NCBI GenBank assembly: GCA_000004985.1 | Contig: GG738921.1 | Reading direction: 5' to 3' (one strand) | Source of the DNA: Naegleria gruberi | Taxonomy: Eukaryota | Length of the DNA stretch: 64,000 nucleotides | The notes under the pieces: generated by a model | Databases searched by the model: none | What the model was told of the DNA's origin: nothing | The model's input: only the letters and a program-made list of their open reading frames with translations | In this document: positions 4,065 through 42,978 of the stretch, in pieces | Layout of the letters: each line of letters begins with the position of its first letter | Numbering within the stretch: position 1 is the stretch's first letter | Position numbers and translations under genes: made by a program

Positions 4065-6358
4065 NNNNNNNNNNNNNNNNNNNNNNNNNNNNNNNNNNNN
4101 NNNNNNNNNNNNNNNNNNNNNNNNNNNNNNNNNNNNNNNNNNNNNNNNNNNNNNNNNNNNNNNNNNNNNNNNNNNNNNNNNNNNNNNNNNNNNNNNNNNN
4201 NNNNNNNNNNNNNNNNNNNNNNNNNNNNNNNNNNNNNNNNNNNNNNNNNNNNNNNNNNNNNNNNNNNNNNNNNNNNNNNNNNNNNNNNNNNNNNNNNNNN
4301 NNNNNNNNNNNNNNNNNNNNNNNNNNNNNNNNNNNNNNNNNNNNNNNNNNNNNNNNNNNNNNNNNNNNNNNNNNNNNNNNNNNNNNNNNNNNNNNNNNNN
4401 NNNNNNNNNNNNNNNNNNNNNNNNNNNNNNNNNNNNNNNNNNNNNNNNNNNNNNNNNNNNNNNNNNNNNNNNNNNNNNNNNNNNNNNNNNNNNNNNNNNN
4501 NNNNNNNNNNNNNNNNNNNNNNNNNNNNNNNNNNNNNNNNNNNNNNNNNNNNNNNNNNNNNNNNNNNNNNNNNNNNNNNNNNNNNNNNNNNNNNNNNNNN
4601 NNNNNNNNNNNNNNNNNNNNNNNNNNNNNNNNNNNNNNNNNNNNNNNNNNNNNNNNNNNNNNNNNNNNNNNNNNNNNNNNNNNNNNNNNNNNNNNNNNNN
4701 NNNNNNNNNNNNNNNNNNNNNNNNNNNNNNNNNNNNNNNNNNNNNNNNNNNNNNNNNNNNNNNNNNNNNNNNNNNNNNNNNNNNNNNNNNNNNNNNNNNN
4801 NNNNNNNNNNNNNNNNNNNNNNNNNNNNNNNNNNNNNNNNNNNNNNNNNNNNNNNNNNNNNNNNNNNNNNNNNNNNNNNNNNNNNNNNNNNNNNNNNNNN
4901 NNNNNNNNNNNNNNNNNNNNNNNNNNNNNNNNNNNNNNNNNNNNNNNNNNNNNNNNNNNNNNNNNNNNNNNNNNNNNNNNNNNNNNNNNNNNNNNNNNNN
5001 NNNNNNNNNNNNNNNNNNNNNNNNNNNNNNNNNNNNNNNNNNNNNNNNNNNNNNNNNNNNNNNNNNNNNNNNNNNNNNNNNNNNNNNNNNNNNNNNNNNN
5101 NNNNNNNNNNNNNNNNNNNNNNNNNNNNNNNNNNNNNNNNNNNNNNNNNNNNNNNNNNNNNNNNNNNNNNNNNNNNNNNNNNNNNNNNNNNNNNNNNNNN
5201 NNNNNNNNNNNNNNNNNNNNNNNNNNNNNNNNNNNNNNNNNNNNNNNNNNNNNNNNNNNNNNNNNNNNNNNNNNNNNNNNNNNNNNNNNNNNNNNNNNNN
5301 NNNNNNNNNNNNNNNNNNNNNNNNNNNNNNNNNNNNNNNNNNNNNNNNNNNNNNNNNNNNNNNNNNNNNNNNNNNNNNNNNNNNNNNNNNNNNNNNNNNN
5401 NNNNNNNNNNNNNNNNNNNNNNNNNNNNNNNNNNNNNNNNNNNNNNNNNNNNNNNNNNNNNNNNNNNNNNNNNNNNNNNNNNNNNNNNNNNNNNNNNNNN
5501 NNNNNNNNNNNNNNNNNNNNNNNNNNNNNNNNNNNNNNNNNNNNNNNNNNNNNNNNNNNNNNNNNNNNNNNNNNNNNNNNNNNNNNNNNNNNNNNNNNNN
5601 NNNNNNNNNNNNNNNNNNNNNNNNNNNNNNNNNNNNNNNNNNNNNNNNNNNNNNNNNNNNNNNNNNNNNNNNNNNNNNNNNNNNNNNNNNNNNNNNNNNN
5701 NNNNNNNNNNNNNNNNNNNNNNNNNNNNNNNNNNNNNNNNNNNNNNNNNNNNNNNNNNNNNNNNNNNNNNNNNNNNNNNNNNNNNNNNNNNNNNNNNNNN
5801 NNNNNNNNNNNNNNNNNNNNNNNNNNNNNNNNNNNNNNNNNNNNNNNNNNNNNNNNNNNNNNNNNNNNNNNNNNNNNNNNNNNNNNNNNNNNNNNNNNNN
5901 NNNNNNNNNNNNNNNNNNNNNNNNNNNNNNNNNNNNNNNNNNNNNNNNNNNNNNNNNNNNNNNNNNNNNNNNNNNNNNNNNNNNNNNNNNNNNNNNNNNN
6001 NNNNNNNNNNNNNNNNNNNNNNNNNNNNNNNNNNNNNNNNNNNNNNNNNNNNNNNNNNNNNNNNNNNNNNNNNNNNNNNNNNNNNNNNNNNNNNNNNNNN
6101 NNNNNNNNNNNNNNNNNNNNNNNNNNNNNNNNNNNNNNNNNNNNNNNNNNNNNNNNNNNNNNNNNNNNNNNNNNNNNNNNNNNNNNNNNNNNNNNNNNNN
6201 NNNNNNNNNNNNNNNNNNNNNNNNNNNNNNNNNNNNNNNNNNNNNNNNNNNNNNNNNNNNNNNNNNNNNNNNNNNNNNNNNNNNNNNNNNNNNNNNNNNN
6301 NNNNNNNNNNNNNNNNNNNNNNNNNNNNNNNNNNNNNNNNNNNNNNNNNNNNNNNNNN
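4065..6358. other. Assembly gap (N run, ~2.3 kb)
   Basis: Uninterrupted n characters. Confidence 0.99.
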
Positions 6359-11709: not shown

Positions 11710-11831
11710 NNNNNNNNNNNNNNNNNNNNNNNNNNNNNNNNNNNNNNNNNNNNNNNNNNNNNNNNNNNNNNNNNNNNNNNNNNNNNNNNNNNNNNNNNNN
11801 NNNNNNNNNNNNNNNNNNNNNNNNNNNNNNN
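11710..11831. other. Assembly gap
   Basis: N run. Confidence 0.99.
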
Positions 11832-12611: not shown

Positions 12612-14052
12612 ATGACTGAACATACTCACATTTCATCTGATACTTATGAAAGAGAGCTATTTACAAAGGAAGAAAAATTCAATGTGTTGATTAATTATTC
12701 TCCTTCCGATGCTTGTTTTCTTGATGAAATTGATCAAATGATTGATGAACAAGCTGAAGATTCTTGGTTGAGAACAAACTTTAATTTCATCAAGTCTGAT
12801 ATGGATAGAGAATCAATTCAAGGAAAATTACATTTTGCAAAGGATGCTAAGCCTAAAACCATCATGGCCTTTAAATTTCCTTCTAAGGAGAGATATCTCA
12901 TGGATACAAGTAGTATGGAAATTACTAGGGAAAGTTTGACACAATTTTTAAAGTCAATTCTTGATGGTAAGGCTGTGAGATATATTGGTAGAGAAACTAG
13001 ACATGAAAATGATGAATATTCTCCAGAGATGAAACATTTAAAGAGTATTGTTTATGATACATTTGATGAAATTGTAATGGATTCAAAGAAGGATGTTTTT
13101 GTTGCACTTTGCTTTAATGAAACTCTTGAAGGAAATTTCATTTCAACAATGGCTAAAATTCTCCAAAATGAACCTAATTTGGTTATTGGTAGAATGAATT
13201 CTGCTTACAATGATTATTCTCTTGAATATTTTCCAAAAGAAAAGTATTTCCCAAAGCTAACATTCTTTAGTGCAGCTAATAAGACACCCATTATTGGAGA
13301 TGCTTATGTTAATGATGAATGCATTACTGCCAAACAATTATTGACATGGATTCATGAATCATGCACTCATAAATTTGATATGGAAAAGTATTTGGAACAA
13401 GTAACTCAATATGATGAATTGGCAGCACTTATTGATGAATGCAAATTAGCTGTATGGAAAGTTGAAAACAATTTACATTCCATTCGTTCAATCTTGCCAG
13501 ATTATAAACATCCAGCTGAAGAGTTTTCAATTCCATTGAAAGAACTTGTGAAAGGAGAGGATAAAAGCAAGATGAAAGAGCTACTGGAAAAGATTAAGAG
13601 TGTCTCTCTTCAAGATATGATTGATTTACTTGAACAATACAAGGCAGGAAAGACTATACATTTGAAAGCAGATGAAACTGTTGATAGTTATTATTTGGAA
13701 AGATATGAAAAGGTTATTGTTGATTTTACAGCAACATGGTGTGGTAAGTTTTTATTTGATATTTACAATTTGTTAATTAAATATATGGTATATACAAATT
13801 TGTGTTGTGAACTAATTAAAATAATTATTAGGTCCTTGTCAAGCTATTGCTCCACTTTTTGGATATTTATCAAGTATTGAACAAGATATTATTTTCCTCA
13901 AAGTTGATGCTGATGAATGTCAAGAACAATGTAAAGCATTTAACGTTGATGGTTTTCCAACATTTAAATCATTTAAGGGAAAGAATATGGTACAAGTTAT
14001 AATTGGAAGTGATTTGAAAGGATTGAAAAAGATGGTTGAAAATTTACATTAA
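12612..14052 (+). CDS. Thioredoxin-domain-containing protein (C-terminal WCGPC thioredoxin fold), one intron 13744..13831
   Basis: Exon 1 ends ...FTATWCG at 13743, and an 88-nt GTAAGT..TTAG intron follows. Exon 2 opens with G-PCQAIAPLF, which completes the WCGPC active site, and continues KVDADECQEQCKAFNVDGFPTFK to the stop at 14050-14052. Confidence 0.75.
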
Positions 14053-15482
14053 TTTCCAATATTTTTAATATGGAAATAAATTATATTAATAGCTTTAAAT
14101 AAAGATTTAATTTTTGGTAAAATTGTACTTGATAATATTGTATAAATAAAAATAAAATTTAATAATTCAACAATAGGTAATACTAAATTTGGAATTACAT
14201 TTCTATCAATAATATAATAATTAGTAATTAATCCAAATATAGTAAATAAAAACATGTAAGGTGAAACTCTATTAGAAACAAATTTAGAAATTATAATTAA
14301 ACAAATACAAATTGTAACGAGAATATTTCCAAATAGTAAACCAAAAAATTTAAATAAATTCCAAATTAAGTAATCTTCTCCCATTTGTTGATAAAATAAT
14401 TGTCTCATATTTGTAAATAATACAATATCCATATAAGTATTAAAATTACATAATAATAAAATTAGTAAAATTAAAAATATAATTTCAGGTAACATGTTAA
14501 AACATCCTTTTACCAAATTTGGAAAGTTAAATTTATAATTTAAACTTTTAAAAGAATTTCCAATATGTACATCACATGGTAAATCTGAAAAATATTCCAA
14601 AGAATCATCTCCAATATCAAAAAATGATAATTTTGGAACATTAATTACTAATTCCTTTTTTGGAATTATTAATTCTTGTTCAATAATTAAATCTAAAGGT
14701 AAATATGTACTCTTTTTAATATTATAATTATAAATTAGAGAACTAAATACTTGTCTAAACTTTTCCTTTCTTGATTTTTTAAAAGAATTTGAAAAATCAA
14801 AATCACGATCATGTGAAATTTGTAACTTTCTATTTTTGGTAATATCCATTGGTTTTATATCTAAAATTGAAATTGAATTATTATCATTATATCCATGTAT
14901 TAAATATAATTGTTTATCATCAATTACATCTTCACATATTTTGTTAATAATTCCATATTTGGAATTACAAGTTGCATATAGTAAAAAATCTGAAACTCCA
15001 ACATTTCTATTTTCAATAATTAAATCAATATAATTAAATCTCATCATAAATCTTAGACAAACTTTCAAATCCTCCTTATTTGAAATAATTCCATATTTGG
15101 AATCTTTTAAATTAATCAAATTTAATTCCTTTCCATTTGCAAACTTTTTCATAAATGAAATTCTAGAATGTGATAAAAATCTAACAAATCTACATTCTAC
15201 CAATTTTAGAAATATATTTTCCCTATTATAGTCATGTAAATAATTAAACCAATCAACTTGACAAATCATTAACCGATAAATATCATGAACATTGAGAAAT
15301 AAACAAATTTCATAGAGAATATACATGGAAATATGATGATTACATTGATTACATTGATTACTATTATTATCATATTCAACTAGTATATTATTATTATTTG
15401 ATAATGGTGTTGTAATTTCATGGTCATCATTATCATCATTTGGAAAAGATGACAATGATTCTTGTATGTTGGATGAGAACAT
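14049..15482 (-). CDS. Hypothetical multi-pass membrane protein (hydrophobic C-terminal third)
   Basis: It is a 477-aa ORF. The N-terminal region is N-rich and the C-terminal ~150 aa holds several hydrophobic segments. I recognised no family. Confidence 0.45.
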   Translation of the reverse strand: MFSSNIQESLSSFPNDDNDDHEITTPLSNNNNILVEYDNNSNQCNQCNHHISMYILYEICLFLNVHDIYRLMICQVDWFNYLHDYNRENIFLKLVECRFVRFLSHSRISFMKKFANGKELNLINLKDSKYGIISNKEDLKVCLRFMMRFNYIDLIIENRNVGVSDFLLYATCNSKYGIINKICEDVIDDKQLYLIHGYNDNNSISILDIKPMDITKNRKLQISHDRDFDFSNSFKKSRKEKFRQVFSSLIYNYNIKKSTYLPLDLIIEQELIIPKKELVINVPKLSFFDIGDDSLEYFSDLPCDVHIGNSFKSLNYKFNFPNLVKGCFNMLPEIIFLILLILLLCNFNTYMDIVLFTNMRQLFYQQMGEDYLIWNLFKFFGLLFGNILVTICICLIIISKFVSNRVSPYMFLFTIFGLITNYYIIDRNVIPNLVLPIVELLNFIFIYTILSSTILPKIKSLFKAINIIYFHIKNIGN

Positions 15483-15759
15483 TTTTTTTTAAAGAGATTA
15501 AAAGTTAGCACTTATGAACGTTTACTTTGTTTTGAACCTTCTTTAAGTTTCTTACATGTTTCCGATTAACAAGTCCTCTCTCTCTTTGTGGTACATTGGA
15601 AAATTGAGGAAAATAAGAGGATTTGAGAAAAAAACTTGAAGATTCAATCGACTACTACACAAAGATATCCATAGAGTAAATAATTGCATTTGTATTGTTC
15701 ATTCAAAACTAATTTCCTTTTTGGTAATATTGACAAATTAAAAAAAACAATTAAAAAAA

Positions 15760-23976: not shown

Positions 23977-24939
23977 ATTTCAAGAAAACTTGGAAGCATG
24001 ATACAACAGTAGTTATTAAGGTTGAATTGTCTTTTCTCATTCTTCCTTAAAATCGAAATGAGTTCAAAAATTAACATGCATATCCAAACTTAAAAACCTG
24101 TTCCTTAAAGGAAAATGAAAACAATTTCCTTATTTAAACCTTAACAAAACAGTAAAAGAACTACTTATGAAGAAAAGGAGGAACTTAAAGGCCGTGGAGT
24201 TTTAATCCCTAAAAATTCTCTCATCTAAGATTTCATTTGAAAGGTTTTGTGTTAGTAGTAAGAAGAATAATCATGTTAATACAACCAATTGTATTTGGCA
24301 AAACTAGCATTAATTTGAATGACACTTGAAAAGCACTTGAAATAAAGATTACGCTTGTCGGATTGTGATGATTAGAAATCACTTGGTGATTCTTAACAAC
24401 TCTAAAAAACAAGTCCATTCTCTCTGTGAGTGTCCATTTCTCACCCAAGTAGTTGTTATTGTTATTGTACATAAGAAGAGAACATCAGTATTGTTGTTTC
24501 ATCATCAAAATTGTTGTTAGTTTCAAAAGTAAACTCCATATCTCTCATAGGCCACCATTCCTAGTTTGGATCCAAAAAGCCAACCCTATTCGAATTTCGA
24601 TAACCAAATAAAAGAGCAACCACCTATAGAGTTAATAACAACATTGAGAGAGGTAAATTAATAACTACATCATACTTTGAATAGCACACATTGTATTCTT
24701 ACACGTGTTAGCAGCAACATTGAGACGAATTTCATATAGCCACTCTCACACACAACAGATTAACTGGAGAGAGTAATATTTCATCAAGTAATTGTGCTGT
24801 ACATTGTTTCATTGAAATCTAGATTATCCATCATCATCACCTTCATCAATTATTAATTACAGCAAGAATCAATAATTAATAATATATTCACTTCACCACC
24901 TCTCTACTACAACATCACTACTTTAACCTAATAACAATA

Positions 24940-26227
24940 ATGAATAATAATTTAATGATGAATCATAATAACAATACTCAAAGATCATCTCCTCCATCTT
25001 CCACTAGTTCTCCTCTCACGCCTCAAACCCTACTACATAATAATAATAATAACAATGGAATGATGTTTAATGATCAAAGTATGCCTCCTCCTTCATCAAT
25101 TTCCCCTGGTGGTAATAGTAATAATATTAATGTATTTTCAACTCTTCAACAAATAGCCTCCTCTAATCCAAATAGTCAAACTATGCAACTACTCAAACAT
25201 ATACAAACATTACCACCCAATCTACAACAATTATATTTACAAAGACTATTACAACAATTGAATCAATTAAAAACCACATCATCGGGTGATGGAAATATTG
25301 TCCAATCTCCTAATAATACCACGAATCATATGATGTTAGCAAACAATAATAACAATAACATTGCCTCTACGGCAGTGACGAGAAATAATCAATCAAACTT
25401 GACAATGAATGCAGCAGTGACACAAAACCCATTATCCTCTTCGAATACTCCAACCATTGTAATTCCTAATAATAATAATAATAATCATGCAACAACAGGA
25501 TCAATCATCATTACATATTTCAAGTAATGGTAATTCATTTCATGTTAATAACAATAATAATGGTGCCACCATTGGTCCAGGTGGTATCCTGAATCTTGTC
25601 AATAATTCATCAACAGTCTCAACTCAACCTTCTTCCACAACAATGACATCACTCAATGTAAAAAACAATAGTGGAAGTGGACTTTTCGACCTGACCATGT
25701 TTTCTAATCAAGCAACAGCCAATTCTAAAAATCCTGTACTTCAGAATCTTTCCAATGATATTCTGCTTAAATTATATCAACAACAAATGCAATCACAACA
25801 TCCTTTTAATCACGGAGACAAATTTGTATTTGAACAACAAACTTTTGAATATCAAGTGGAAACTTTAGATGATTTACTGAAAATTGGTATTGGGAGATGG
25901 AAGAATTTAATTCAAAGTAATTTAGTTAATAATCAACAACAACAACAACAACAACAACAATTAATATCATCAAATGGTAATATGACAATGAATAATGTTG
26001 TCATGACTAGTAATAATAATAATAACAATAATATGGGTATTAATAGTATGAATAACAATATTATGAATGGTATGAATGGTACAATAGTAACAACAGCAAC
26101 GAATCAACCAGTCTATATAGCGCCTGGTAATTCTGCTTTTCAGAAATATATGAAAGATTCTTTACATGGTAGTGTACAATATTTTCCACAAAGACAAGTT
26201 GATGGAAGTGTTAAGATGAATGAATAA
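24940..26227 (+). CDS. Gln/Asn/Ser-rich hypothetical protein; two overlapping frames (24940..25527 and 25487..26227) imply a frameshift in an (AAT)n run
   Basis: Both ORFs share the same low-complexity composition. The frame switches within AATAATAATAATAATAATCATGCAACAACAGG near 25480-25500, and no intron signals are present there. Confidence 0.4.
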
Positions 26228-27995: not shown

Positions 27996-28246
27996 TTTTT
28001 TAATTTGAATAAAATAAACATTTCATTTTGGCGGGAAAATTGTTTTGACAATAACTTGCACAATAAAAATTGAATAATTCTCGGATTTAATCAAAGAGTA
28101 CCGGTACTAGTCGATGATACATTTAAATACGAAAAGGTGAAGTGTAAAAGTTTAAATTTTAATTTTAGCTATTGTCAGTTTCAAATCCCAATTCTAACCT
28201 TCTTCTTCATGTTCAAATAATTTTTTCATTTTTGAACTAAAAAAAA

Positions 28247-30463
28247 ATGCACAACAACATCAACCTGCCCTATTACGATCACTCTCTAGGAGGGGAATAT
28301 AATGATTCGGATGATATGGAAACAATGTATGGGATTAAGAAAAATCATGGAGTACAACAGTCAAATTTTGGTTACTATGATGATGGTAGTTGTAAACATT
28401 GTGGAGCATCATCAGAATATATTGAATCCGATGAATTTAATTATGAAGTTTGTAGTAAATGTGGAACACAAGTAACATCTTCATCACAACCAATATCAAT
28501 ATTTAGAGAAGAAATAGAATTTGATAAGGATAATTCGAAAAAGATTGGACGACATGTTTCTAATGATGAAGGCTTTTTTGGAGCCTATTTGATGGCAACA
28601 TCATCCGATCCAAGTGCAATCATTCATGGTCAAAATTCTAAAGCTCAAGCCAGATTACAAAGACAATTGGGTGCCAAAAAGAAGGCTGAAATTAGAACTG
28701 CAAAATTATTGAGTGCTTTGAAATTACCAAATCGTTACCTTCCAGAAGTAATGAATTTTGTTTGTAAAATGGCAGAAAAACCAAATAATGTAACAACAAA
28801 AAAATCAGAAAAGAAAGTTCACAGTAATAAGATTGGATCACCAGACTCACAAAGTGGTGGTAGTGCTGGATGTATCTATAATTTAGGTACTCAAGAAGTG
28901 ATAGATTTTGATGAATTTGCATCAGATGAGGAAAATTTTGATGAAATACCAACTAAAGCCAAATTAGAATCATCTAGTGATGGGTTTAGTCCAGAAAGAG
29001 ATTTTGATCCTTTACCTAGTAGTACTGATGAAACTAAATTTGAGGATGACCCAAGAGAACATAGCTTAAATTTAATGAAACAAAGATTTCAATCCACTTT
29101 ACTTTCAACAAAGCAACAAGAAAAGACAACGAAAAAGGAGGAAGAATCAGAATCAAGCGATATTATCAAATTCAAATACACAAAAGAAAAGTGGATGGAT
29201 GGTGTGATAGCTGGAGCTCTCTATGTAGTGTGTAGACGCGAAAAACTACCAATAACACTTTTGGATCTTTCAGAAGTAACAGGATACAGTATTTTTGAGC
29301 TGGGAAGAAAATACAAGGAAATTTGTAAAACTTTTAATATTCAAGTGGATCCATTGGATTTGGAAACTTTATGTGATAGAATGACTAATGAATTTTCTGA
29401 TTGTTTCACAGATGAAAATGGGCAAGTTAATATCAAGACTAAAACAGATATCAATTTGAGGATGAGAAGAATTATTAGAGTTGCTATGAAAGAATGTTTA
29501 GATTCAGGGAGAAGACCTATTGCTCTGGTTGCAGCTGCTCTTTTACTTGCATTACAATCATGCTCGATTGATATGAAATTATCAGAAGTTGCGAGATCTA
29601 CACATGTAGGAGAGGCTACAATAAGAGAAAGATTTAACGAGCTCAAGCAGCTTTTAATGAACCTTTCGAAACAACTCCCTTGGGCTCATGAAATCACACT
29701 CAAAACACTTCCAAGACATTTACCATTTATTCTCGATGTAGTTGAACAACTCAGAGATTTACAGAGAACCAGAATTGATGATGAATCTTCGGCGAGCTCA
29801 AGCTCGGATTCTCCATCGAATAATAATACGTTCAATCAGTCGTTTGTATCTGAAACAAAAACTGAGGAATCTGCTTTGCCAGAACATATAGTGAAGGGTA
29901 ATATTCAGAGAATTTTGGGATTGACAAAGGGTAAATTGGCTAAGGAGATATCAATAATTAATTCTCAACTCCCAAGTCCAATGCCACCTGCATTTATCAA
30001 GGCTCAACTAGAAAAGGAAAGGAAAAAGGCCATAGTCATGCTTGCCAAGCAAAGAATTCAAAATTCTCTTTCAGGAATATCTAATAGTGAAACTTTACCA
30101 ACTGCTATGATAGAGTCAGATGTGTTGGAGATGGAAAAACTTCTATTGCAAGGTGTCTCAGAGGAGGCCTTAATTTCTGGACATACTCACTTGAGCACTT
30201 TGCCATATTTCCTTGGTAAGGATGGAGTAGACAAGGGTGAGGAACTAACTGAAATGGATGTCTCTCAAAAGGAATTGAACGATATAATGAGGAGTAAGGA
30301 AGAAATTGCTGCACTGGTAGGAATTAGAGAAGAACATGGTGATGATATTGATGCTGAAATATCTATAAAGGAGGTTACACGGAAAAGAAAGAAGGAGGAA
30401 GATGATACCAATTACATTTCTGCCACCTTACTCAATCCAAGTTTAAAAAAAATTAAAAAATAA
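28247..30463 (+). CDS. TFIIB-family general transcription factor paralogue (N-terminal zinc ribbon + two cyclin folds; BRF/TAF1B(Rrn7)-like, paralogue undetermined)
   Basis: The zinc ribbon is CKHCGASSEY...CSKCGTQV. The first cyclin-fold helix pair (LPNRYLPEVMNFVCKMAEK ... GVIAGALYVVCRREKLPITLLDLSEVTGYSIFELGRKYKEI) is split by a ~250-aa acidic, low-complexity insert. The second fold is RRPIALVAAALLLALQ...LSEVARSTHVGEATIRERFNEL. Confidence 0.6.
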   Translation: MHNNINLPYYDHSLGGEYNDSDDMETMYGIKKNHGVQQSNFGYYDDGSCKHCGASSEYIESDEFNYEVCSKCGTQVTSSSQPISIFREEIEFDKDNSKKIGRHVSNDEGFFGAYLMATSSDPSAIIHGQNSKAQARLQRQLGAKKKAEIRTAKLLSALKLPNRYLPEVMNFVCKMAEKPNNVTTKKSEKKVHSNKIGSPDSQSGGSAGCIYNLGTQEVIDFDEFASDEENFDEIPTKAKLESSSDGFSPERDFDPLPSSTDETKFEDDPREHSLNLMKQRFQSTLLSTKQQEKTTKKEEESESSDIIKFKYTKEKWMDGVIAGALYVVCRREKLPITLLDLSEVTGYSIFELGRKYKEICKTFNIQVDPLDLETLCDRMTNEFSDCFTDENGQVNIKTKTDINLRMRRIIRVAMKECLDSGRRPIALVAAALLLALQSCSIDMKLSEVARSTHVGEATIRERFNELKQLLMNLSKQLPWAHEITLKTLPRHLPFILDVVEQLRDLQRTRIDDESSASSSSDSPSNNNTFNQSFVSETKTEESALPEHIVKGNIQRILGLTKGKLAKEISIINSQLPSPMPPAFIKAQLEKERKKAIVMLAKQRIQNSLSGISNSETLPTAMIESDVLEMEKLLLQGVSEEALISGHTHLSTLPYFLGKDGVDKGEELTEMDVSQKELNDIMRSKEEIAALVGIREEHGDDIDAEISIKEVTRKRKKEEDDTNYISATLLNPSLKKIKK

Positions 30464-30578
30464 CTTTGACAAATCCTTTTATGGTCCTTTTTGATATGTA
30501 TTAATATATTTATGAAAAATTGAAAAAATCAGAGGTTACGTATGGGAGATAACTTTTGCTGTTAGTTATTTAATGTAA

Positions 30579-30665
30579 CCGATGATAGCTCAGCTGGTAG
30601 AGCATGGGACTGTAGCAAGAACAACTGTCATCCTGTGGTCGGCGGTTCGATTCCGTCTCATCGGA
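30579..30665 (+). tRNA. tRNA-Tyr (GTA) with 14-nt intron (30616..30629)
   Basis: The acceptor stem CCGATGA pairs with TCATCGG. The D-arm is TAGCTCAGCTGGTAGAGC (A box). The anticodon loop is CTGTAG followed by the intron CAAGAACAACTGTC one nt 3' of the anticodon. The T-arm is GGTTCGATTCC (B box). A T-run lies downstream. Confidence 0.85.
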
Positions 30666-30735
30666 AGCTTTTAACAATTTTGTATTTTAATTGGTATTTA
30701 AGGAATTTAATTAAGGATAATAAGGTCAATGTGAA

Positions 30736-30808
30736 GCTGGCGTAGCTCAGTCGGTAGAGCGTTGGTCTAATAAGCCATTGGTCGCCGGTTCGATCCCGTC
30801 CGTCAGCA
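30736..30808 (+). tRNA. tRNA-Ile (AAT), tandem to tRNA-Tyr; two stem mispairs
   Basis: The sequence is GCTGGCG/TAGCTCAGTCGGTAGAGC/G/TTGGT-CTAATAA-GCCAT/TGGTC/GCCGG-TTCGATC-CCGTC/CGTCAGC-A, with canonical A and B boxes. There is a 27:43 T·T mismatch and a 50:64 C·T mismatch. TTTT lies downstream. Confidence 0.65.
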
Positions 30809-31223
30809 GATGTTTTATCTTTTGAGGATCTTTTGTTCCTTTCAAAATAGGAAGAAACTTTTTTTTTAAATATATCTGTAAAACATGGGATCTTTTAATA
30901 GCAGAAACCCCTTGGTAATGACTTCCATGAGTACAAAACTGGGAATTTAATAAGAAAGTTCGTTGAAACAACTCTTATTTTCATTAAAGACGGTACACAT
31001 TTCACTCATCGTCACTTTAAACTAATTTACCAGAGCAGTGTGTTTTAATGAAGATCTTACAACTGAACTAAAAGAAAATGCAACATGCAATTCCTCCTTT
31101 TTCAATCTTGTCTCTTCTTCTGTGTCCTATTTTTCGGTAAAAGTCTTAATACATAAAACATATAGCAATGTTTATTGAAAGAGCTACGTTCATTTCAATT
31201 TTGAATTTAATGAGACAAATTTA

Positions 31224-31273
31224 NNNNNNNNNNNNNNNNNNNNNNNNNNNNNNNNNNNNNNNNNNNNNNNNNN
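31224..31273. other. Assembly gap (further 50-nt gaps at 32706..32755 and 42926..42975)
   Basis: N runs. Confidence 0.99.
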
Positions 31274-31890
31274 GACATTCGGACAGTTGTATGAAGACTA
31301 CAGCGCCTAGAATTATTGCTCATGATTTTACAAGAAATAATTATTTCCTTGGAATGTTAAAGCTGAAAAGAGGTTAATTATTTTTCCAGGTGGTAATTCA
31401 ATTCGGCTGCTTGACAAGTTAATCCCTGAACATTAATCATTCCTTTTGNTTTGGTATCTTTCTGTGATACATAGTAATATAATTTTCCTATTTTTCAAAT
31501 TATTATTACAATATTGTAGGTTAAAGATGAGAATATAGTATTCGAAACAATTTATTTACTCAACCTGAAATAGATGCAATTACTTGCAAAAATGCCACTC
31601 AAAATTACTGTGGTTTTGTCATGCAGTACAAAACCCATGGATGAGCAAAATTTGTCCTTGAATTATAGTGTCGACATATAAAGTTTCAATTTTTGAATAT
31701 GCAACAAATGGGTTATAATATTAAAAAATTCTTTTCCTATATTCTCAACTTGATTTTTAGAATTTATAATGATCCCTATACAATGATTCCTTAATATGAT
31801 AATATTATATATTAGATTTATTTGATCATCACTTCAAACCAAAAATCTCCCGCTAACATTATTAAGATATTAAAAATATTTACAAAAAAA

Positions 31891-32697
31891 ATGAACCAAC
31901 TCGATCCTAGTGCCTTATCCCAAATTGCTTCATTCCTTACTGTAGATGATATTGATGCTTTCAAATTTATAAACCGAAAGAACGTGGCAGTCTTAGGAAG
32001 TGGTATAAAATCTCAATCGTTGGTGAATCGGGATTTTTCCTATCTTTTTGATGATCATCATGAGAACAGTGATTTGGAAAGGGAGTGGTCAATCTTTGAA
32101 GATCGTAATATACCATCCATTCTGATTCAATTGAATTTTTTAGAAGATGATTTTCCAATCTCTCATGTATTGAGATTCTTTAGACATTTAGTTGGAGAAA
32201 AGAATTTTAAACAATGGAGTAGTACAGAAGCCGATATTATCATTAATTGGGGTTCGGAGGGAAGAAGTTCAATGGATTTAATATTTAAGGAACTTGATGC
32301 TCTTTCGTCTATTAATTTGAAAGGCATGGAGGCAGAGAATCAGGAACAAACAGTAAGAGAAATGATCTCAAATTGGAGAGAAAACAAGAGGTTTTTCATA
32401 AGTGAAAACGATGTTCTAAACCCTTTCCGAGTTTTTAAAAAGATTAAGATCAAAATTCAAGGGTTTCAGGATAAATTTTCAAATCTGTATGAGGAACACC
32501 CGAGACCAATTCGTTGTAAAAATTGCATCCATGTAACAAGTTCCCATCCCAAAACATTTTTCAATGAATATGATGTGATTATGTTTAATGGTTCCATCAA
32601 ACATGATTATAAAACATGTACAACATTTGACAATCTTCCAAGAGACAAATTTGAAAAATTTGATGAAAAATGCAGGCTTTTCTCTATAGCATGGTAG
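31891..32697 (+). CDS. Hypothetical protein (no recognised domain); may be the N-terminal part of the downstream protease gene across the 32706..32755 gap
   Basis: It is a 269-aa ORF from ATG 31891 (AAAAAAAATG). Its composition lacks the N/Q runs typical of neighbouring genes. Confidence 0.35.
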   Translation: MNQLDPSALSQIASFLTVDDIDAFKFINRKNVAVLGSGIKSQSLVNRDFSYLFDDHHENSDLEREWSIFEDRNIPSILIQLNFLEDDFPISHVLRFFRHLVGEKNFKQWSSTEADIIINWGSEGRSSMDLIFKELDALSSINLKGMEAENQEQTVREMISNWRENKRFFISENDVLNPFRVFKKIKIKIQGFQDKFSNLYEEHPRPIRCKNCIHVTSSHPKTFFNEYDVIMFNGSIKHDYKTCTTFDNLPRDKFEKFDEKCRLFSIAW

Positions 32698-32755
32698 ATC
32701 AAGTGNNNNNNNNNNNNNNNNNNNNNNNNNNNNNNNNNNNNNNNNNNNNNNNNNN

Positions 32756-33967
32756 AGCTCTCCCCATTGAATACAATCTCTCTTCATTCTCAAATCATAA
32801 CAACAAGATTAATGAAGCCTTGATGGTCCGAATGAAAATGATTAACAATAACACTCGAGCAGATGATGAAGGCATACCTGAGCTTCTAATCCCTAACATT
32901 TACAAAGATTCTTCTGCTGCTTTCAACATCTTTATGGTGTTTGATAAATATACATTCAAAGAGGCCCAAGATGAAGGAATTATTACTGAAGAAGAAATTA
33001 AAAGAGTAACCGAAAATAATCCAGTTATAATTCATGGTGGGAATGATGGTAAACTAATTTGTTCTGGATCTGCCTTTTTGTTACATCCTTGGTTCAATAG
33101 ACCTCAAGAATCTCAAACTCTATACTTCGCAACAGCTAGACACAATCTGTGCAAACAGATATTGAACAACTATGTGATTAAATTATCCACAATGTATGTC
33201 ACTGAGCATGTGCAAACTGATGTGTATCATCAAGACATTGGTTTAAACAATTATGATAAAATTCTTGCCACCCCATTAATTAAGAAGGATGTTGAATCCT
33301 TAATGTGTACATCAGATCCAGATATAACTTTTTTCAAAATCCATCTAGATGGTTTTTCCAATCATAGAATGGCATTTGAATTCTTTAGCAAAGCAAGATA
33401 TTTCATTCCAAAATCTGTAACGCAACTTTCAACAATTAATGATGAAAGCTATAATGTTGGAATAGCTTGTGTATTAGGAAAGTGGAGAGATGTGGATTTT
33501 GAAAGGTAAGTATTCAATTATTTAAGTAGTTATATTTTATGACAAGATTGGAAAACACTAGCCCAAGTATTGAGTGGACTGAATCATTAAGGCAATATCT
33601 GAACTCAACTAATCGACCTGGAGGTGTGGTTTGGTCATTTGGTCAGTCAAAAGGATTCAAAACTATTGGAAACATTGACTATATTTGTTATAATTGTGCC
33701 TCTGCACCTGGATGTAGTGGCGGAGCTTGTATTTTAATGAATCCAATCAGTAATCCTTATCCGTCCAAAGAACAATGTATCTCATTCATTGGTGTTCACA
33801 GAGGGTTTAGTCCACAACATGACTGTAACATTGCAACTCCATTCTCCATAGCGAAAGATCAATACAAGACACTCATCTATGCCAATATTAAGAATGATTT
33901 GCCAAGAAAGGGAAGAAGACAAATAGAAGAGTTTTTGGGTGAAAAAGGATCTTGTACTGTATTGTAA
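32756..33967 (+). CDS. Chymotrypsin-fold serine peptidase (GxSGG nucleophile motif, 3C/V8-like His in S1 wall); 5' end in gap; 41-nt intron 33506..33546
   Basis: The His motif FATARHNL is in exon 1. The nucleophile motif APGCSGGACIL and then ISFIGVHRGF (GxH, as in Glu/Gln-specific 3C-like and V8 proteases) are in exon 2. Exon 1 ends GAAAG|GTAAGTATTC, and ..TGACAAG|ATTGG restores the frame (DVDFE-R-LENTSP). Confidence 0.55.
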
Positions 33968-34263
33968 ATAACCAATCTGTCCATATTTTGAGAGCATCCC
34001 TAAATTCTCGTCCTGTACAATAATTTCAATTTATTCAAAGTTAGCATTTCCATTAACAAATCCTCTAACATTGAATGTTGTTTTATTTTTCAATTATTAT
34101 TTAGATCCCAAACTATCAGTTTCAACAAGACAAATTAAAATACACATGATAACAGACGATTTCTTGTTTTGATAGAACTTTTTGGAGTTTTATAATTTTT
34201 TAATCTATTTTTTATTATTAAAAATTTAATTTTTGATAAACTGGGTGAAATAATCAAGAAAAC

Positions 34264-37200
34264 TTAGATTTCTTGACAATAATTACCAGGGAAGAGTCCC
34301 CTCTTTCCTTGTTTTTCACCTTCCCACCAACCAGATGGATCTTTATCTAACAAGGTAATAATTTCTCCTTCACGAAGAGTCAACTCGTCGTCAGCTGAAG
34401 CTTGATAATTGTACAATACCTTAACCTTTGGCTTTTCATCCTTCTTTGGTGGAGGTGGTAACTTCTTCTTATATGCACCACCGCCTTGTTCTTGTTGTTG
34501 AGCTAGGTAGGTTGATTCTTGAATTGGTGCAGTTTCCAATAATGACATTCTGTGACCAATTTGTTTTGGTTGATTGTTGGCTTGATAGGCTTGCATCTTA
34601 ACTTCGACCTTCTTTGGTTGGGAACTTGCTGGTAAACCATCAGCAATACCAATCTTGTAGCCAGAACCAGAACCAGAAACGTTGGCTAACTTGCTCTTTG
34701 GATCCAATACAAATTCTGCCTTCTTAACAGTCTTCTTCTTCTTATTCTCAGTGAAGGACAACATATTTTCAAAGGTACGAGGAATATCACGATTCATCTT
34801 GGCTCTGTATTGATCGTTCAAAATGGCCAAAAATTCAGTCTTGTTTTCACATTCCAAGAATAAGTCATCAATGTTTGGATCATTGATTTGAATGGCAAGC
34901 CAATTGTCAGACAATTGAGACATGGAAACACATTGAATTTGATTCATGGAAATTCTACACAACATGTCCATAATGAATTGCTTCTTGACCTTTTCACGAT
35001 GGATAAAGTACAAGGCCTCATTGGTCAATAGACCCCAAATCTTGTCGAAAGTGACACCCTTCAAGAGTTTCTTCTTTGGTCTCATGAAAATATCACCAAA
35101 GACAACACCACCATCATCTTTACGACCTTGCTTTTTCATCACTTCTTGCAATTGAGCATTATCCATATAATTGGCATGGTCACCCAAAAAGTTTCTATTG
35201 AGTGACAATCTACGACGTTGCTTTCTTCCTTCCAACAAGTCAGCACTGGTATTTCTCAACTTGATAAAGTAACGTTTCAACTTGTAGTTACGCCACAATC
35301 TTTGCATTTGAGTAGCATTGTCGTGGAATAAACGTTCCTTACTTTCTTCCAAACCAAAGAGAGTATCTGGCTTTCTCAAAAAGATTTTAGTTTTACCCAT
35401 TTGATATTCACCTTGATCAATGCCCATATCCTTCAAAATGGTTTCACAACCAGTACGTGGATCACCCTTCCATTGTGGCCATGTCTTTTTAGAGAGGACA
35501 GAGAAGGAGTTCAAGAACTTTTGGAATGGAGCACGGAATGCAAAACCAGCTCTTCTCACACGAATATTTTCCAACAAACCCAAATATTTGACTTGATGGA
35601 GTACACGTTTGGTATCAAAGTCACGAGGTTGCTTGGTTTCGTTTGGTTTAATACAACGAATATAGTGAGGTTCACACTTTTTCAATGTTGCAACCAATTC
35701 CACAGCAGAATTCTTAATCTTAAAACCAGCACTTTCAGGTCTCTTCTTATCATTTTCATTGACATTTTCAGGGAAGAACTTTCTAATGAAAGAATTGGTT
35801 GTAGATTGCATACATTGAATCAAGGTCTTGTAGAGAACGTCCTTATTCTTATCAGTGAAACCATCAATGTTATAATCGACAGTACCAGCATAGTGCTTAA
35901 CTGAAAATTCATTGGTACGACCAACAAAGTGAGGATTATTGACAACTTCACGCAAACGTGTCAAGAATTTTTCATCAGCAGCTCTAGCTTCCATAGAGTG
36001 AGTAGTGTTACAAGTGTCATCGAGAATGGAAAAGATACCAGGTGGATTCTTTTCTTCAATCAAATCACAGACAATCTTATTGTTAAAGTATTGAATTGGT
36101 TCCCATTTGATACCTTCTTGAGTATATTCTTCCTGTTCTGCTTTAAGTGTCAAGTCAATAAAGATTTGTTGCAATTTTTCATTGACATAATTGATACAGA
36201 ATTGTTCAAAACCATTCTTGTCAAAGATTTCAAAACCATAAATGTCCAAAACAGCTAAAATCAAAGTATTCTTCTTTGTATCCATGGCATCATTGATACG
36301 TTTAACCAACCAATCGAACAATCTAGCATATAATACCTTAGCCAAGGCATCACGAATGTTGGCAGCTTGAGCAGGTGATTGAGAAACTGTAATTTCTTCA
36401 TTACCTGATTTGATAATTCTATTCAACAAGGCAAATTGCAACTTATCAGAAGCAACATTGAGTAAATAGGCAGCATAATCCAAAGTACCTGAATCTTCAA
36501 CAACAGATCCTTTACCAGCTTCTCTAAATGTAATGTTACCAAGCCACAAGATACCTGCAACCATTCTCATGATATTTGATTGTTCTTCCTTTGTAATACC
36601 AATAACGTCCATGGCCTTTCTAGTCAATTGATATTCTTCAGCATCATCAATACCATCAACATTGTAACAACCAGATTGTGATAAGTAGTAGAAATCGTGA
36701 GCATTGGTTGTGGCAAATTCTTCCTTTTCTTCCTTAGAAGCACCTGCACACAATTGATAGAAAATGTGGAAGTTACGTTCACCAGCTTGTTGATAGACAA
36801 CTCTGGATTTTTCCAAGAGATAGTTGGTAATTTTACCACCTATTGGATCACCTCTATCATCAAACTGTTTAATAGTTGAGTAGTAGTAGTAGTTGTGGTA
36901 GTAGTAGTTACAGTTTACAATGAAATTTTTGTAACAAGTACATATTGAAATAAATTACAAAAAAATGTTAAACATTATATTAACAAATCAGCAAGTAGTA
37001 CAACATACCTGAATTTCAAAGAATTTACCGAAACGAGATGAATTGTTGTTACGAACAGTTTTGGCATTACCAAAAGCTTCTAACAATGGATTGGACTCGA
37101 GGATAATTCTCTTCACACGATCAACACCAACACCATCACCAGAAACAGCAGCAATATATTGCATAATTAACTTGGAAGCTTCAGTCTATTATAACAATTT

Positions 37201-42925: not shown

Positions 42926-42978
42926 NNNNNNNNNNNNNNNNNNNNNNNNNNNNNNNNNNNNNNNNNNNNNNNNNNAAA

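Follow-up and report, generated by a model that had tools for sequence, protein, structure and literature searches.

Two elements of the S1 pocket, His213 and Ser/Thr190, are common to all glutamyl endopeptidases (Glu-SGP, V8, the exfoliative toxins, and the serine proteases of arteri- and sobemoviruses), and are found as well in the Gln-specific 3C and 3C-like enzymes; mutation of His213 inactivates most of these Glu/Gln-specific enzymes (PMC5508998). Members of the S1B family, that of the glutamyl endopeptidases and exfoliative toxins, are secreted by bacteria and made with signal peptides and propeptides. In eukaryotes, Tysnd1/Deg15 is an intracellular, peroxisomal PA-clan serine protease targeted by a short C-terminal signal, which is a PTS1 (peroxisomal targeting signal 1) tripeptide and not a CaaX box. 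We describe here a gene of the heterolobosean Naegleria gruberi, read at positions 32757-33967 of a 64,000-nucleotide (nt) stretch of its genome (hereafter the window), whose predicted product recalls these different enzymes. Our favoured reading, which we hold with moderate confidence, is that it is an endogenous, lineage-restricted Naegleria gene with one intron, encoding a highly diverged cytosolic PA-clan serine protease of the S1B/S1C (Trypsin_2-like) kind with a CaaX anchor. The observations behind it are the structure of the gene, the conservation of its motifs in five lineages, the profile similarity of the C-terminal half of the protein, the host-like composition and the conserved CaaX box.

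The elements of the gene are the following, with residues numbered on the 384 amino acid (aa) spliced model.

32757-33508, plus strand: exon 1, open from the edge of an assembly gap; it encodes a conserved N-terminal region of ~85 aa and what would be the first beta-barrel, containing the candidate His and Asp.
33141-33143, plus strand: His129, candidate catalytic His, within CSGSAFLL...TLYFATARHN; it falls on the TNxH His72 of exfoliative toxin A, at low confidence.
33228-33230, plus strand: His158, a second invariant His (VYHQ / ITHP) and alternative candidate for the general base; the catalytic His of DegS is placed here, at low confidence.
33321-33323, plus strand: Asp189, candidate catalytic Asp, in DPDITFFKI; the Asp column is invariant, and the motif D-I-[TS]-F-[FLI]-[KR] aligns with toxin DLAL(I/L) and DegS DLAVLKI.
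33509-33561, plus strand: spliceosomal GT-AG intron of 53 nt (GTAAGT...AG).
33562-33967, plus strand: exon 2; it encodes the putative second beta-barrel, in which the Ser nucleophile and the S1 pocket would lie, then a helical region at the C-terminus and the CaaX box, and ends with the TAA stop at 33965-33967.
33701-33718, plus strand: S-A-P-G-C-S; Ser297 (33701-33703) would be position 190 of the S1 pocket, and Ser302 (33716-33718) the nucleophile of GCSGG.
33791-33805, plus strand: G-V-H-R-G; His329 (33797-33799) would be equivalent to His213 of the S1 wall.
33953-33967, plus strand: CaaX box C-T-V-L followed by TAA in the window translation, with the Cys four residues from the end.

Relatives of this protein are few. 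A word-indexed search of 5.8 billion proteins matched only the public N. gruberi 'predicted protein' (P0001, a 474-aa model) and a near-identical metagenome copy (P0002), and a profile search of 5.8 billion proteins brought no further family members. Searched exhaustively with phmmer, 1.84 billion representatives yielded 8 proteins. Five of them match the protease part: P0004 (398 aa) and P0005 (425 aa) of Willaertia magna, P0002, and the metagenome fragments P0007 and P0008. The 3 others match only the part of P0001 that derives from an upstream open reading frame (ORF), ORF-A, to which we return below. Further loci were compared at the DNA level: the Willaertia contigs of P0004 (L002) and P0005 (L003, 10001-11278), an environmental contig with a 97%-identical copy (L001), and two metagenome contigs (L004 and L005). 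All named relatives are heteroloboseans (N. gruberi and Willaertia magna), the other matches being unassigned metagenome fragments, and no match from other Naegleria species was found in the protein databases searched. Bacterial, viral or phage relatives were not found in any search (two very large protein sets, IMG/VR, JGI contigs, PHROGs, NCBIfam): a scan of IMG/VR gave 46 pattern matches and a peptide pattern 206 matches in JGI metagenome contigs, none of which was real, and none of the 52 loci found with the DNA pattern for YFATAR[HN]N was confirmed by tblastn. The gene family is thus far known from Naegleria, Willaertia and a few environmental relatives only.

Homologues are about 30-40% identical to the window protein (~30% for four full-length sequences), and the two Willaertia paralogues are 49% identical to each other. 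The blocks that remain invariant are P-x-x-I, C-x-x-x-x-F-x-L, YFATAR-x-N, D-I-x-F, FIP, YN, AS-x-x-GCSGG, F-x-GVH-x-G and N-x-AT. A previous inspection of the DNA that used the letters and their translation only (hereafter the sequence-only reading) had proposed a chymotrypsin-fold serine protease with 3C/V8-like GxH specificity, on the basis of the strings FATARHNL (His), a probable Asp, PGCSGGACIL (Ser) and IGVHRGF. These strings are indeed encoded there, in plus-strand frames. They also go beyond chance, as they are conserved in homologues 30-40% identical, and the family profile stands far above shuffled controls against two PA-clan families.

The best profile match was obtained with the S1B family. 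Aligned with hhalign to a 14-sequence alignment of exfoliative toxins, the family profile scored 30.5 (P=0.0027), a value that none of 200 column shuffles reached (mean 14.3, standard deviation 2.3, maximum 21.6, z about 7), and the reversed template scored 18.6. The protease domain of E. coli DegS (S1C) gave 29.0 (P=0.0023) and its C-terminal barrel alone 25.0 (P=6.5×10−4), neither score being reached in 100 shuffles. The value for E. coli DegQ was 18.3 (P=0.11, z=2.0), and none of 21 unrelated phage proteins exceeded 18.7; with two sequences only, a DegQ/DegS template lacked the depth that hhalign needs. When extended, the toxin alignment is co-linear: His, Asp, Ser, the Ser at −5 from it and GVH of the family fall on His72, Asp120, Ser195, Thr190 and His213 of exfoliative toxin A, the His and Asp columns being of low confidence. 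TLYFATARH lies on V(I/L)TN-x-H, DITF on DLAL, and GVH on GIH, while S-A-P-G-C-S lies on T-x-P-G-N-S, in the T-x-P-G-N-S-G-S stretch of the toxins, and on the GNSGG of DegS and HtrA2. By eye, the strand-turn-strand pattern PxxI / CSGxxFLL / TLYFATARH resembles PAVVNV / GSGVIM / GYIITNKH of DegS. Significant similarity to the PA clan is found for the C-terminal half only, i.e. the putative second beta-barrel.

Several results weigh against the favoured reading. The N-terminal half alone gave no signal against the first barrel of S1B or DegS/DegQ; because this half has no detectable similarity, the assignments of the first barrel, of the His and of the Asp rest on the shape, order and conservation of the motifs. 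The hhalign probabilities were just 11-12% despite the low pairwise P-values. No curated model of Pfam, NCBIfam or PHROGs reached its threshold: the best Trypsin_2 (PF13365) match was that of P0004 (residues 287-323, profile positions 97-135), with E=0.049 and 14.8 bits for a gathering threshold of 27.6, and the window protein had no Pfam match, Trypsin_2 included. Sequence and profile searches of the PDB gave nothing significant; HtrA2 was one of three profile matches, in the correct register but at a non-significant E=1.3, and the sub-profile of the C-terminal barrel ranked unrelated reductases first. AlphaFold2 models made from the seven-sequence alignment were unusable, with a predicted local distance difference test (pLDDT) of 38.6 when the public model was placed first and 34.9 with P0004 first; in both of these low-confidence models the N-terminal half was all-beta, the His lying where strands end and the Asp where they start, and helices were modelled at the C-terminus. 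Foldseek returned nothing below E=0.85 with the P0004 model; 25 of its top 50 matches are S1 proteases with a template modelling (TM) score of about 0.1, which we did not count as evidence. Lastly, P0005 has an Asn at the proposed catalytic His, and the existence of a second invariant His means that the triad assignment is not unique; several relatives, moreover, look decayed or mis-assembled (L004, L005, L001).

Could the protein have a novel, non-chymotrypsin fold, in which the His, Asp and GxSGG...GxH strings are coincidental? We consider this improbable, in spite of the missing significant matches in Pfam, NCBIfam, PHROGs and PDB sequence searches, of the silent N-terminal half that AlphaFold2 could not fold, and of the hhalign probability of about 11-12%. 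Two independent PA-clan templates were matched in the same register, with P about 0.002-0.003 and z about 7 over shuffles, at scores well above those of the 21 real, unrelated proteins, and the toxin alignment is co-linear over catalytic and pocket positions. The Asp, Ser and His213 motifs occupy invariant columns, that of His129 differing in just 1 of 4, and the DegS-like strand-turn-strand pattern points the same way. The chymotrypsin-fold part of the sequence-only reading is in this sense partly supported, for the C-terminal half through S1B and DegS, and finds no counterpart in an N-terminal barrel signal or in a curated threshold.

Residues His129, Asp189 and Ser302 follow each other in the order of PA-clan enzymes, with spacings of 52-60 and about 113 residues, and the Asp and G-C-S-G-G are invariant (A296, S297, G300, C301, S302, G303 and G304 are all invariant positions). 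The His129 column is kept in all family members except P0005, which reads ATARNN there, so that it varies in 1 of 4 aligned sequences. P0005 keeps the Asp, the Ser, the GVH and the CaaX box despite this Asn; it is perhaps a pseudo-protease, or else a hint that the general base is His158. In the proposed mechanism, His129, Asp189 and Ser302 would form the charge-relay triad, and the backbone of G-C-S-G-G would make the oxyanion hole.

The lesions in other family members are of several types. L004 is full-length but damaged, with an in-frame TAA (976-978) where others have a Tyr and a frame-shifted tail (1360-1410), and L005 (195-215) has a 25-codon deletion after GVHKG. Such lesions, like the 1-nt shift in the tail of L002 described below, could be gene decay or sequencing errors. 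In L001, the 13 N-terminal codons differ from those of the window, and the stop after CTVL is replaced by TAT (1536-1623), so that the frame is open to the contig end and the CaaX box is not terminal. Over 32803-33508 of the window, the nucleotide identity with L001 is 97%, and dN/dS (the ratio of non-synonymous to synonymous substitution rates) between the two protease genes is 0.39; L001 is a copy that has been rearranged or is decaying, unless the metagenome assembly is chimeric. One may ask, then, whether the protein keeps a PA-clan fold but is catalytically dead or repurposed, for instance as a prenylated, membrane-tethered binding module or scaffold. The Asn of P0005, the disrupted members, and a dN/dS that speaks for moderate constraint only are what such a protein might leave behind, and we give this alternative a small but real chance. 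Pseudoenzymes tend to lose the nucleophile or the glycine frame before other features, whereas the window protein, P0004, L001 and L004 retain the His, the Asp, the Ser, GxSGG and the S1 His together, and in P0005 the second invariant His could serve. An active protease remains the reading that we favour.

In the putative S1 pocket, S297 and H329 are invariant and correspond to Thr190 and His213 of the toxin profile, a match read from the alignment and not from a structure; G327, V328 and G331 around H329 are invariant too, and the motif aligns with toxin VGIH and, at the motif level, with GIHVGG of rhinovirus 3C. Because both pocket elements (Ser190 and His213) are invariant in the family, a Glu/Gln-type P1 preference can reasonably be predicted: Ser297 and His329 would shape an S1 pocket accepting Glu or Gln at P1. 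With the S1B enzymes, the family shares these two pocket residues (PMC5508998) and the motif order T-x-x-H, D-[IL]-x-[LF]-[IL]-[KR], P-G-x-S-G, [IV]-G-[IV]-H-x-G. It differs from them in that similarity is detectable in the C-terminal barrel only and the family stays below the Pfam threshold, in being eukaryotic, apparently cytosolic and ~120 residues longer, in having a Cys and not an Asn before the nucleophile, and in ending with a CaaX box. With HtrA/DegS, the likeness lies in the DegS scores given above, and DLAVLKI, GNSGGA and the 'GFAIPF' strand of DegS align with DITFFKI, GCSGGA and NIATPF of the family; in contrast, the family has no PDZ domain, position 213 of HtrA is Asn or Thr and not His, DegQ reaches just z=2, and the His is not consistently alignable.

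The comparison with viral enzymes is more limited. The sequence TKTGQCGG...GIHVGG of rhinovirus 3C fits [ST]-x-x-G-x-[CS]-G-G followed by G-[IV]-H-x-G, so that the motif-level likeness is real, and a predicted Glu/Gln-type pocket is common to the family and to 3C, NIa and 3C-like enzymes (PMC5508998). The family nucleophile is nevertheless a Ser and not a Cys, its Cys being one residue earlier, and hhalign found no significant similarity to human rhinovirus 14 (HRV14) 3C (z=1.9) or tobacco etch virus (TEV) NIa (z=0.1), the templates having been verified against the PDB. These two made up the viral comparison, the serine enzymes of sobemoviruses, arteriviruses and astroviruses lying outside the set. 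Unlike these viral proteases, the protein does not belong to a polyprotein, and no further viral genes lie in its vicinity. Of the '3C/V8-like GxH' label, the pocket pair and the likeness of motifs are borne out by alignment, and direct similarity to 3C or NIa is not; 'V8-like' is a better label than '3C-like' for this family.

A CaaX box, which was not among the features listed in the sequence-only reading, ends the protein in every lineage: CTVL in the window and L001, CTLM in P0005, CMIM in L005, CVVM in L004 and CVLM in L002. All five lineages have the Cys at −4, an aliphatic a2, and L or M as X. Two of the 5 boxes are out of frame, namely CVVM of L004 (shifted frame) and CVLM of Willaertia L002 (1 nt): if the frame is shifted by 1 nt past the annotated stop of P0004 (L002 11185-11230), the translation becomes KRKGGNCVLM-stop and can be aligned to the tails of the other members. 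The box has the form of that of known CaaX-prenylated proteins (Ras/Rho GTPases, G-gamma, lamins, OAS1 p46), with X = L for the geranylgeranyl type or M for the farnesyl type, and L004 and L005 have in addition a second Cys just upstream and basic residues nearby; the difference is that the cargo is a protease domain, and that the lipid modification is here a prediction. By eye, no hydrophobic signal sequence is seen at the N-terminus of the full-length Willaertia sequences. The family protein is probably prenylated, as far as can be judged from its tail, and the data fit a cytosolic, farnesylated or geranylgeranylated, membrane-tethered protein. In the window protein, the CTVL box would be geranylgeranylated, and the enzyme would be tethered to the cytosolic face of a membrane, where it would cut its substrates.

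In full-text searches of the literature, we found no description of a prenylated chymotrypsin-fold protease. It is possible, and we propose it tentatively, that the protein is the founding member of an undescribed PA-clan family confined to vahlkampfiid heteroloboseans, in which a 3C/V8-type Glu/Gln pocket is combined with a CaaX lipid anchor. If so, this would be a chymotrypsin-fold protease on the cytosolic membrane face, an arrangement that we did not find described, and the first such protease with a CaaX box that we know from these searches; the enzyme could process membrane-associated substrates, and would suggest that a deep-branching eukaryote regulates proteolysis on this face of its membranes. 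It would also add to the PA clan a family missed by profile libraries and by AlphaFold2 with a shallow alignment. More speculatively, the enzyme could be directed against the membrane-bound replication machinery found in RNA viruses with this type of protease, or could derive from it.

To come back to the structure of the locus, the sequence-only reading had treated 31891-33967 as a single unit. Translation shows that this interval fuses two separate plus-strand reading units, ORF-A and the protease gene, which are separated by one of the three assembly gaps noted in that reading:

31891-32697, plus strand: ORF-A, from the ATG at 31891 to the TAG at 32695-32697, which lies nine bases upstream of the N-gap; the gap cuts off this orphan gene, distinct from the protease gene, after its 5′ half.
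31224-31273, 31449 (1 N) and 32706-32755, no strand: assembly gaps near the locus, from the gap list.

Since the protease ORF is open right up to the edge of the gap, the start codon of the gene is hidden in gap 32706-32755, and the complete protein would have ~400 residues. The beginning of exon 1 aligns with the N-termini of the Willaertia proteins (MSIEYDV versus ALPIEYNL). Across the intron, the frame moves from 32757 to 32756, and an unspliced transcript would meet a stop immediately after GAA AG|G TAA. An alternative in-frame acceptor exists at 33546; it was chosen in the public model, and would insert residues RLENT. The intron is also present in L001 (92% identical), and missing in the Willaertia and L004 homologues.

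The public annotation joins the two units, which are adjacent and on the same strand. Our spliced product is 98% identical to this model, P0001, which connects residues 1-155 of ORF-A to the protease from 'AQDEG'. A true fusion of an N-terminal ORF-A domain to the protease domain, as in this 474-aa model, seems to us extremely unlikely. It requires a 614-nt intron over the N-gap, and drops 32757-32966 (210 nt), a stretch that is coding: it is conserved in the 97%-identical L001 and in the N-terminal region of the Willaertia proteins, and holds the invariant His14-Asn15, Glu20, Ile45-Pro46 and Phe62 of the family alignment. In addition, ORF-A is identical over 258 of 263 residues (98%) to the N-terminus of NAEGRDRAFT_54359 (P0003, 522 aa), which is encoded on another scaffold and runs 259 residues further without a protease domain. 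The ORF-A part is absent from every protease homologue (Willaertia and L004 proteins, L001 locus), and no ORF-A homologue was found near the Willaertia protease genes. We conclude that the public model is a chimera, an artefact of prediction across the assembly gap, and that its record needs correction.

The contig between the two larger gaps (31274-32705, 1.4 kb) carries the first 263 codons of this NAEGRDRAFT_54359-like gene. About 10 nt from the end of the contig, a frame shift takes the window copy out of the frame of P0003, and for this reason the stop codon of ORF-A is probably an end-of-contig artefact. If the scaffold is right, gap 32706-32755 hides ~260 ORF-A codons, an intergenic spacer and the first protease codons. 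The 1.4-kb contig is probably misplaced or duplicated, which would be a second correction to the record; a haplotype fragment put in the wrong place and a recent segmental duplication are both possible sources. ORF-A itself has no Pfam match. By eye, its N-terminus (31891-31980, LDPSALSQIASFLTVDDIDAFKFINRKN) resembles an F-box, on which Pfam is silent, and after LDPSALSQIASFLTVDDIDAFKFINRKN the low-confidence model shows alternating strand-helix units, which would fit a protein of the F-box/leucine-rich repeat (LRR) type. The matches to G-alpha and flavodoxin that Foldseek gave with the chimeric model were drawn by its ORF-A part, and were judged meaningless.

The origin of the gene was the other matter raised by the sequence-only reading, which suggested a horizontally acquired, element-derived or virus-derived gene on three grounds: atypical, GC-richer composition, a lack of Asn/Gln (N/Q) runs unlike its neighbours, and the proximity of tRNA genes. 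The composition is ordinary. GC is 0.335 for ORF-A and 0.337 for protease exon 1, with a GC content at third codon positions (GC3) of 0.29-0.30, and the long ORFs of the window range from 0.20 to 0.37 for GC and from 0.10 to 0.35 for GC3. Codon usage is host-like, the correlation of relative synonymous codon usage (RSCU) with the pooled ORFs of the window being 0.89, for a range of 0.68-0.96 among neighbours. N/Q runs are missing as well from the flanking genes (28241-30460, 34267-36954) and from the majority of ORFs right of 28 kb. The locus is surrounded by housekeeping genes: Dcc1, a TFIIB/Brf-like gene, and a myosin-I that has TH1 and SH3 domains. The ORFs in 24883-26224, 6 kb from 31891-33967, have 29% Asn+Gln, with runs like NNQQQQQQQQQ; these are probably the N/Q-rich 'neighbours' that were meant. 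Nor is the genome 'amoebozoan', since Naegleria gruberi is a heterolobosean.

As for the tRNA pair upstream of the locus, it is present, and one stretch near it was found to be inverted relative to L001:

30579-30808, plus strand: tRNA pair (30579-30665 and 30736-30808), found by ARAGORN, with Rfam tRNA scores of 54.8 and 59.9 bits.
30579-30665, plus strand: intron-containing tRNA to which ARAGORN gave no name; hand-read as tRNA-Tyr(GTA) with a ~14-nt intron after position 37; Rfam 54.8 bits.
30736-30808, plus strand: tRNA-Ile(AAT), ARAGORN and Rfam.
30982-31135, minus strand: segment X, ~150 nt, 87% identical by blastn to L001 223-367, and inverted relative to the tRNA and the protease gene.

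L001 has an identical tRNA-Ile(AAT) (100% over 90 nt) upstream of its protease gene, with ~240 nt between the two and no ORF-A. Within the intervals compared (window 30727-31165, L001 58-400), the order in L001 is tRNA-Ile, segment X, protease gene. Because L001 is without ORF-A, segment X is inverted, the N-terminal codons differ and the stop is lost, we conclude that either the stretch from the tRNA to the protease gene varies in structure, or the reference scaffold is in error at this place; a variation of this interval between strains would be a further correction to the record. This variability falls short of evidence for a mobile element. A 9-nt inverted repeat flanks the inverted stretch (ATGTTTTAT at 30810-18 and ATAAAACAT at 31153-61); it was seen by eye, and could be chance in AT-rich DNA. 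An idea also formed by eye, that homology was interrupted by an insertion in the 3′ flank of L001, was dropped, as the alignment gave no support to it.

How much of this would call for a foreign gene, be it recently transferred, virus-derived, or the cargo of a tRNA-targeting mobile element? One can point to the position just downstream of tRNA-Ile(AAT) in both the window and L001, to the rearranged interval (segment X inverted, ORF-A present or absent), to a coding block 97% identical while most flanking DNA is unalignable, to the patchy distribution without other-Naegleria matches in protein databases, and to the bacterial-type S1B/S1C enzymes as nearest detectable fold relatives. We nonetheless regard such an origin as very improbable. 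In addition to the host-like composition and codon usage and the dN/dS of 0.39 against L001, a spliceosomal intron and a CaaX box, the latter a eukaryotic signal, speak for a host gene; no relatives were found in IMG/VR, JGI contigs, PHROGs, NCBIfam, or the bacterial and viral proteins of the two very large sets. Meaningful terminal or direct repeats were not found in 30400-34300, and the window translations show no transposase, reverse transcriptase or integrase ORF around the protease gene, which is present in one copy in the window. There is no tRNA near the four other family loci (within 10 kb for the Willaertia pair; L004 and L005), and the Willaertia paralogues are intronless and lie amid ordinary eukaryotic genes; their divergence (49% identity) implies a long residence in the lineage. 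A literature search on Naegleria/Willaertia, horizontal gene transfer and proteases returned nothing relevant. Given the host-like composition and codon usage, the intron, the CaaX box, the absence of repeats and the absence of foreign relatives, an acquired, mobile or viral origin is unsupported. The gene looks endogenous and host-like, nothing marks an island, an endogenous viral element or a transposon cargo, and a false lead is thereby removed. The last explanation offered in the sequence-only reading, a diverged housekeeping peptidase, comes closest: a diverged peptidase describes it well, save that it is lineage-specific and not housekeeping.

Elsewhere in the window, further assembly gaps are found at 4065-6358 (2.3 kb), 11710-11831 and 42926-42975. 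Its real compositional outlier is a 479-codon minus-strand ORF (14052-15488) with a GC3 of 0.10, in a region where 14001-15000 is very AT-rich (GC 0.19).

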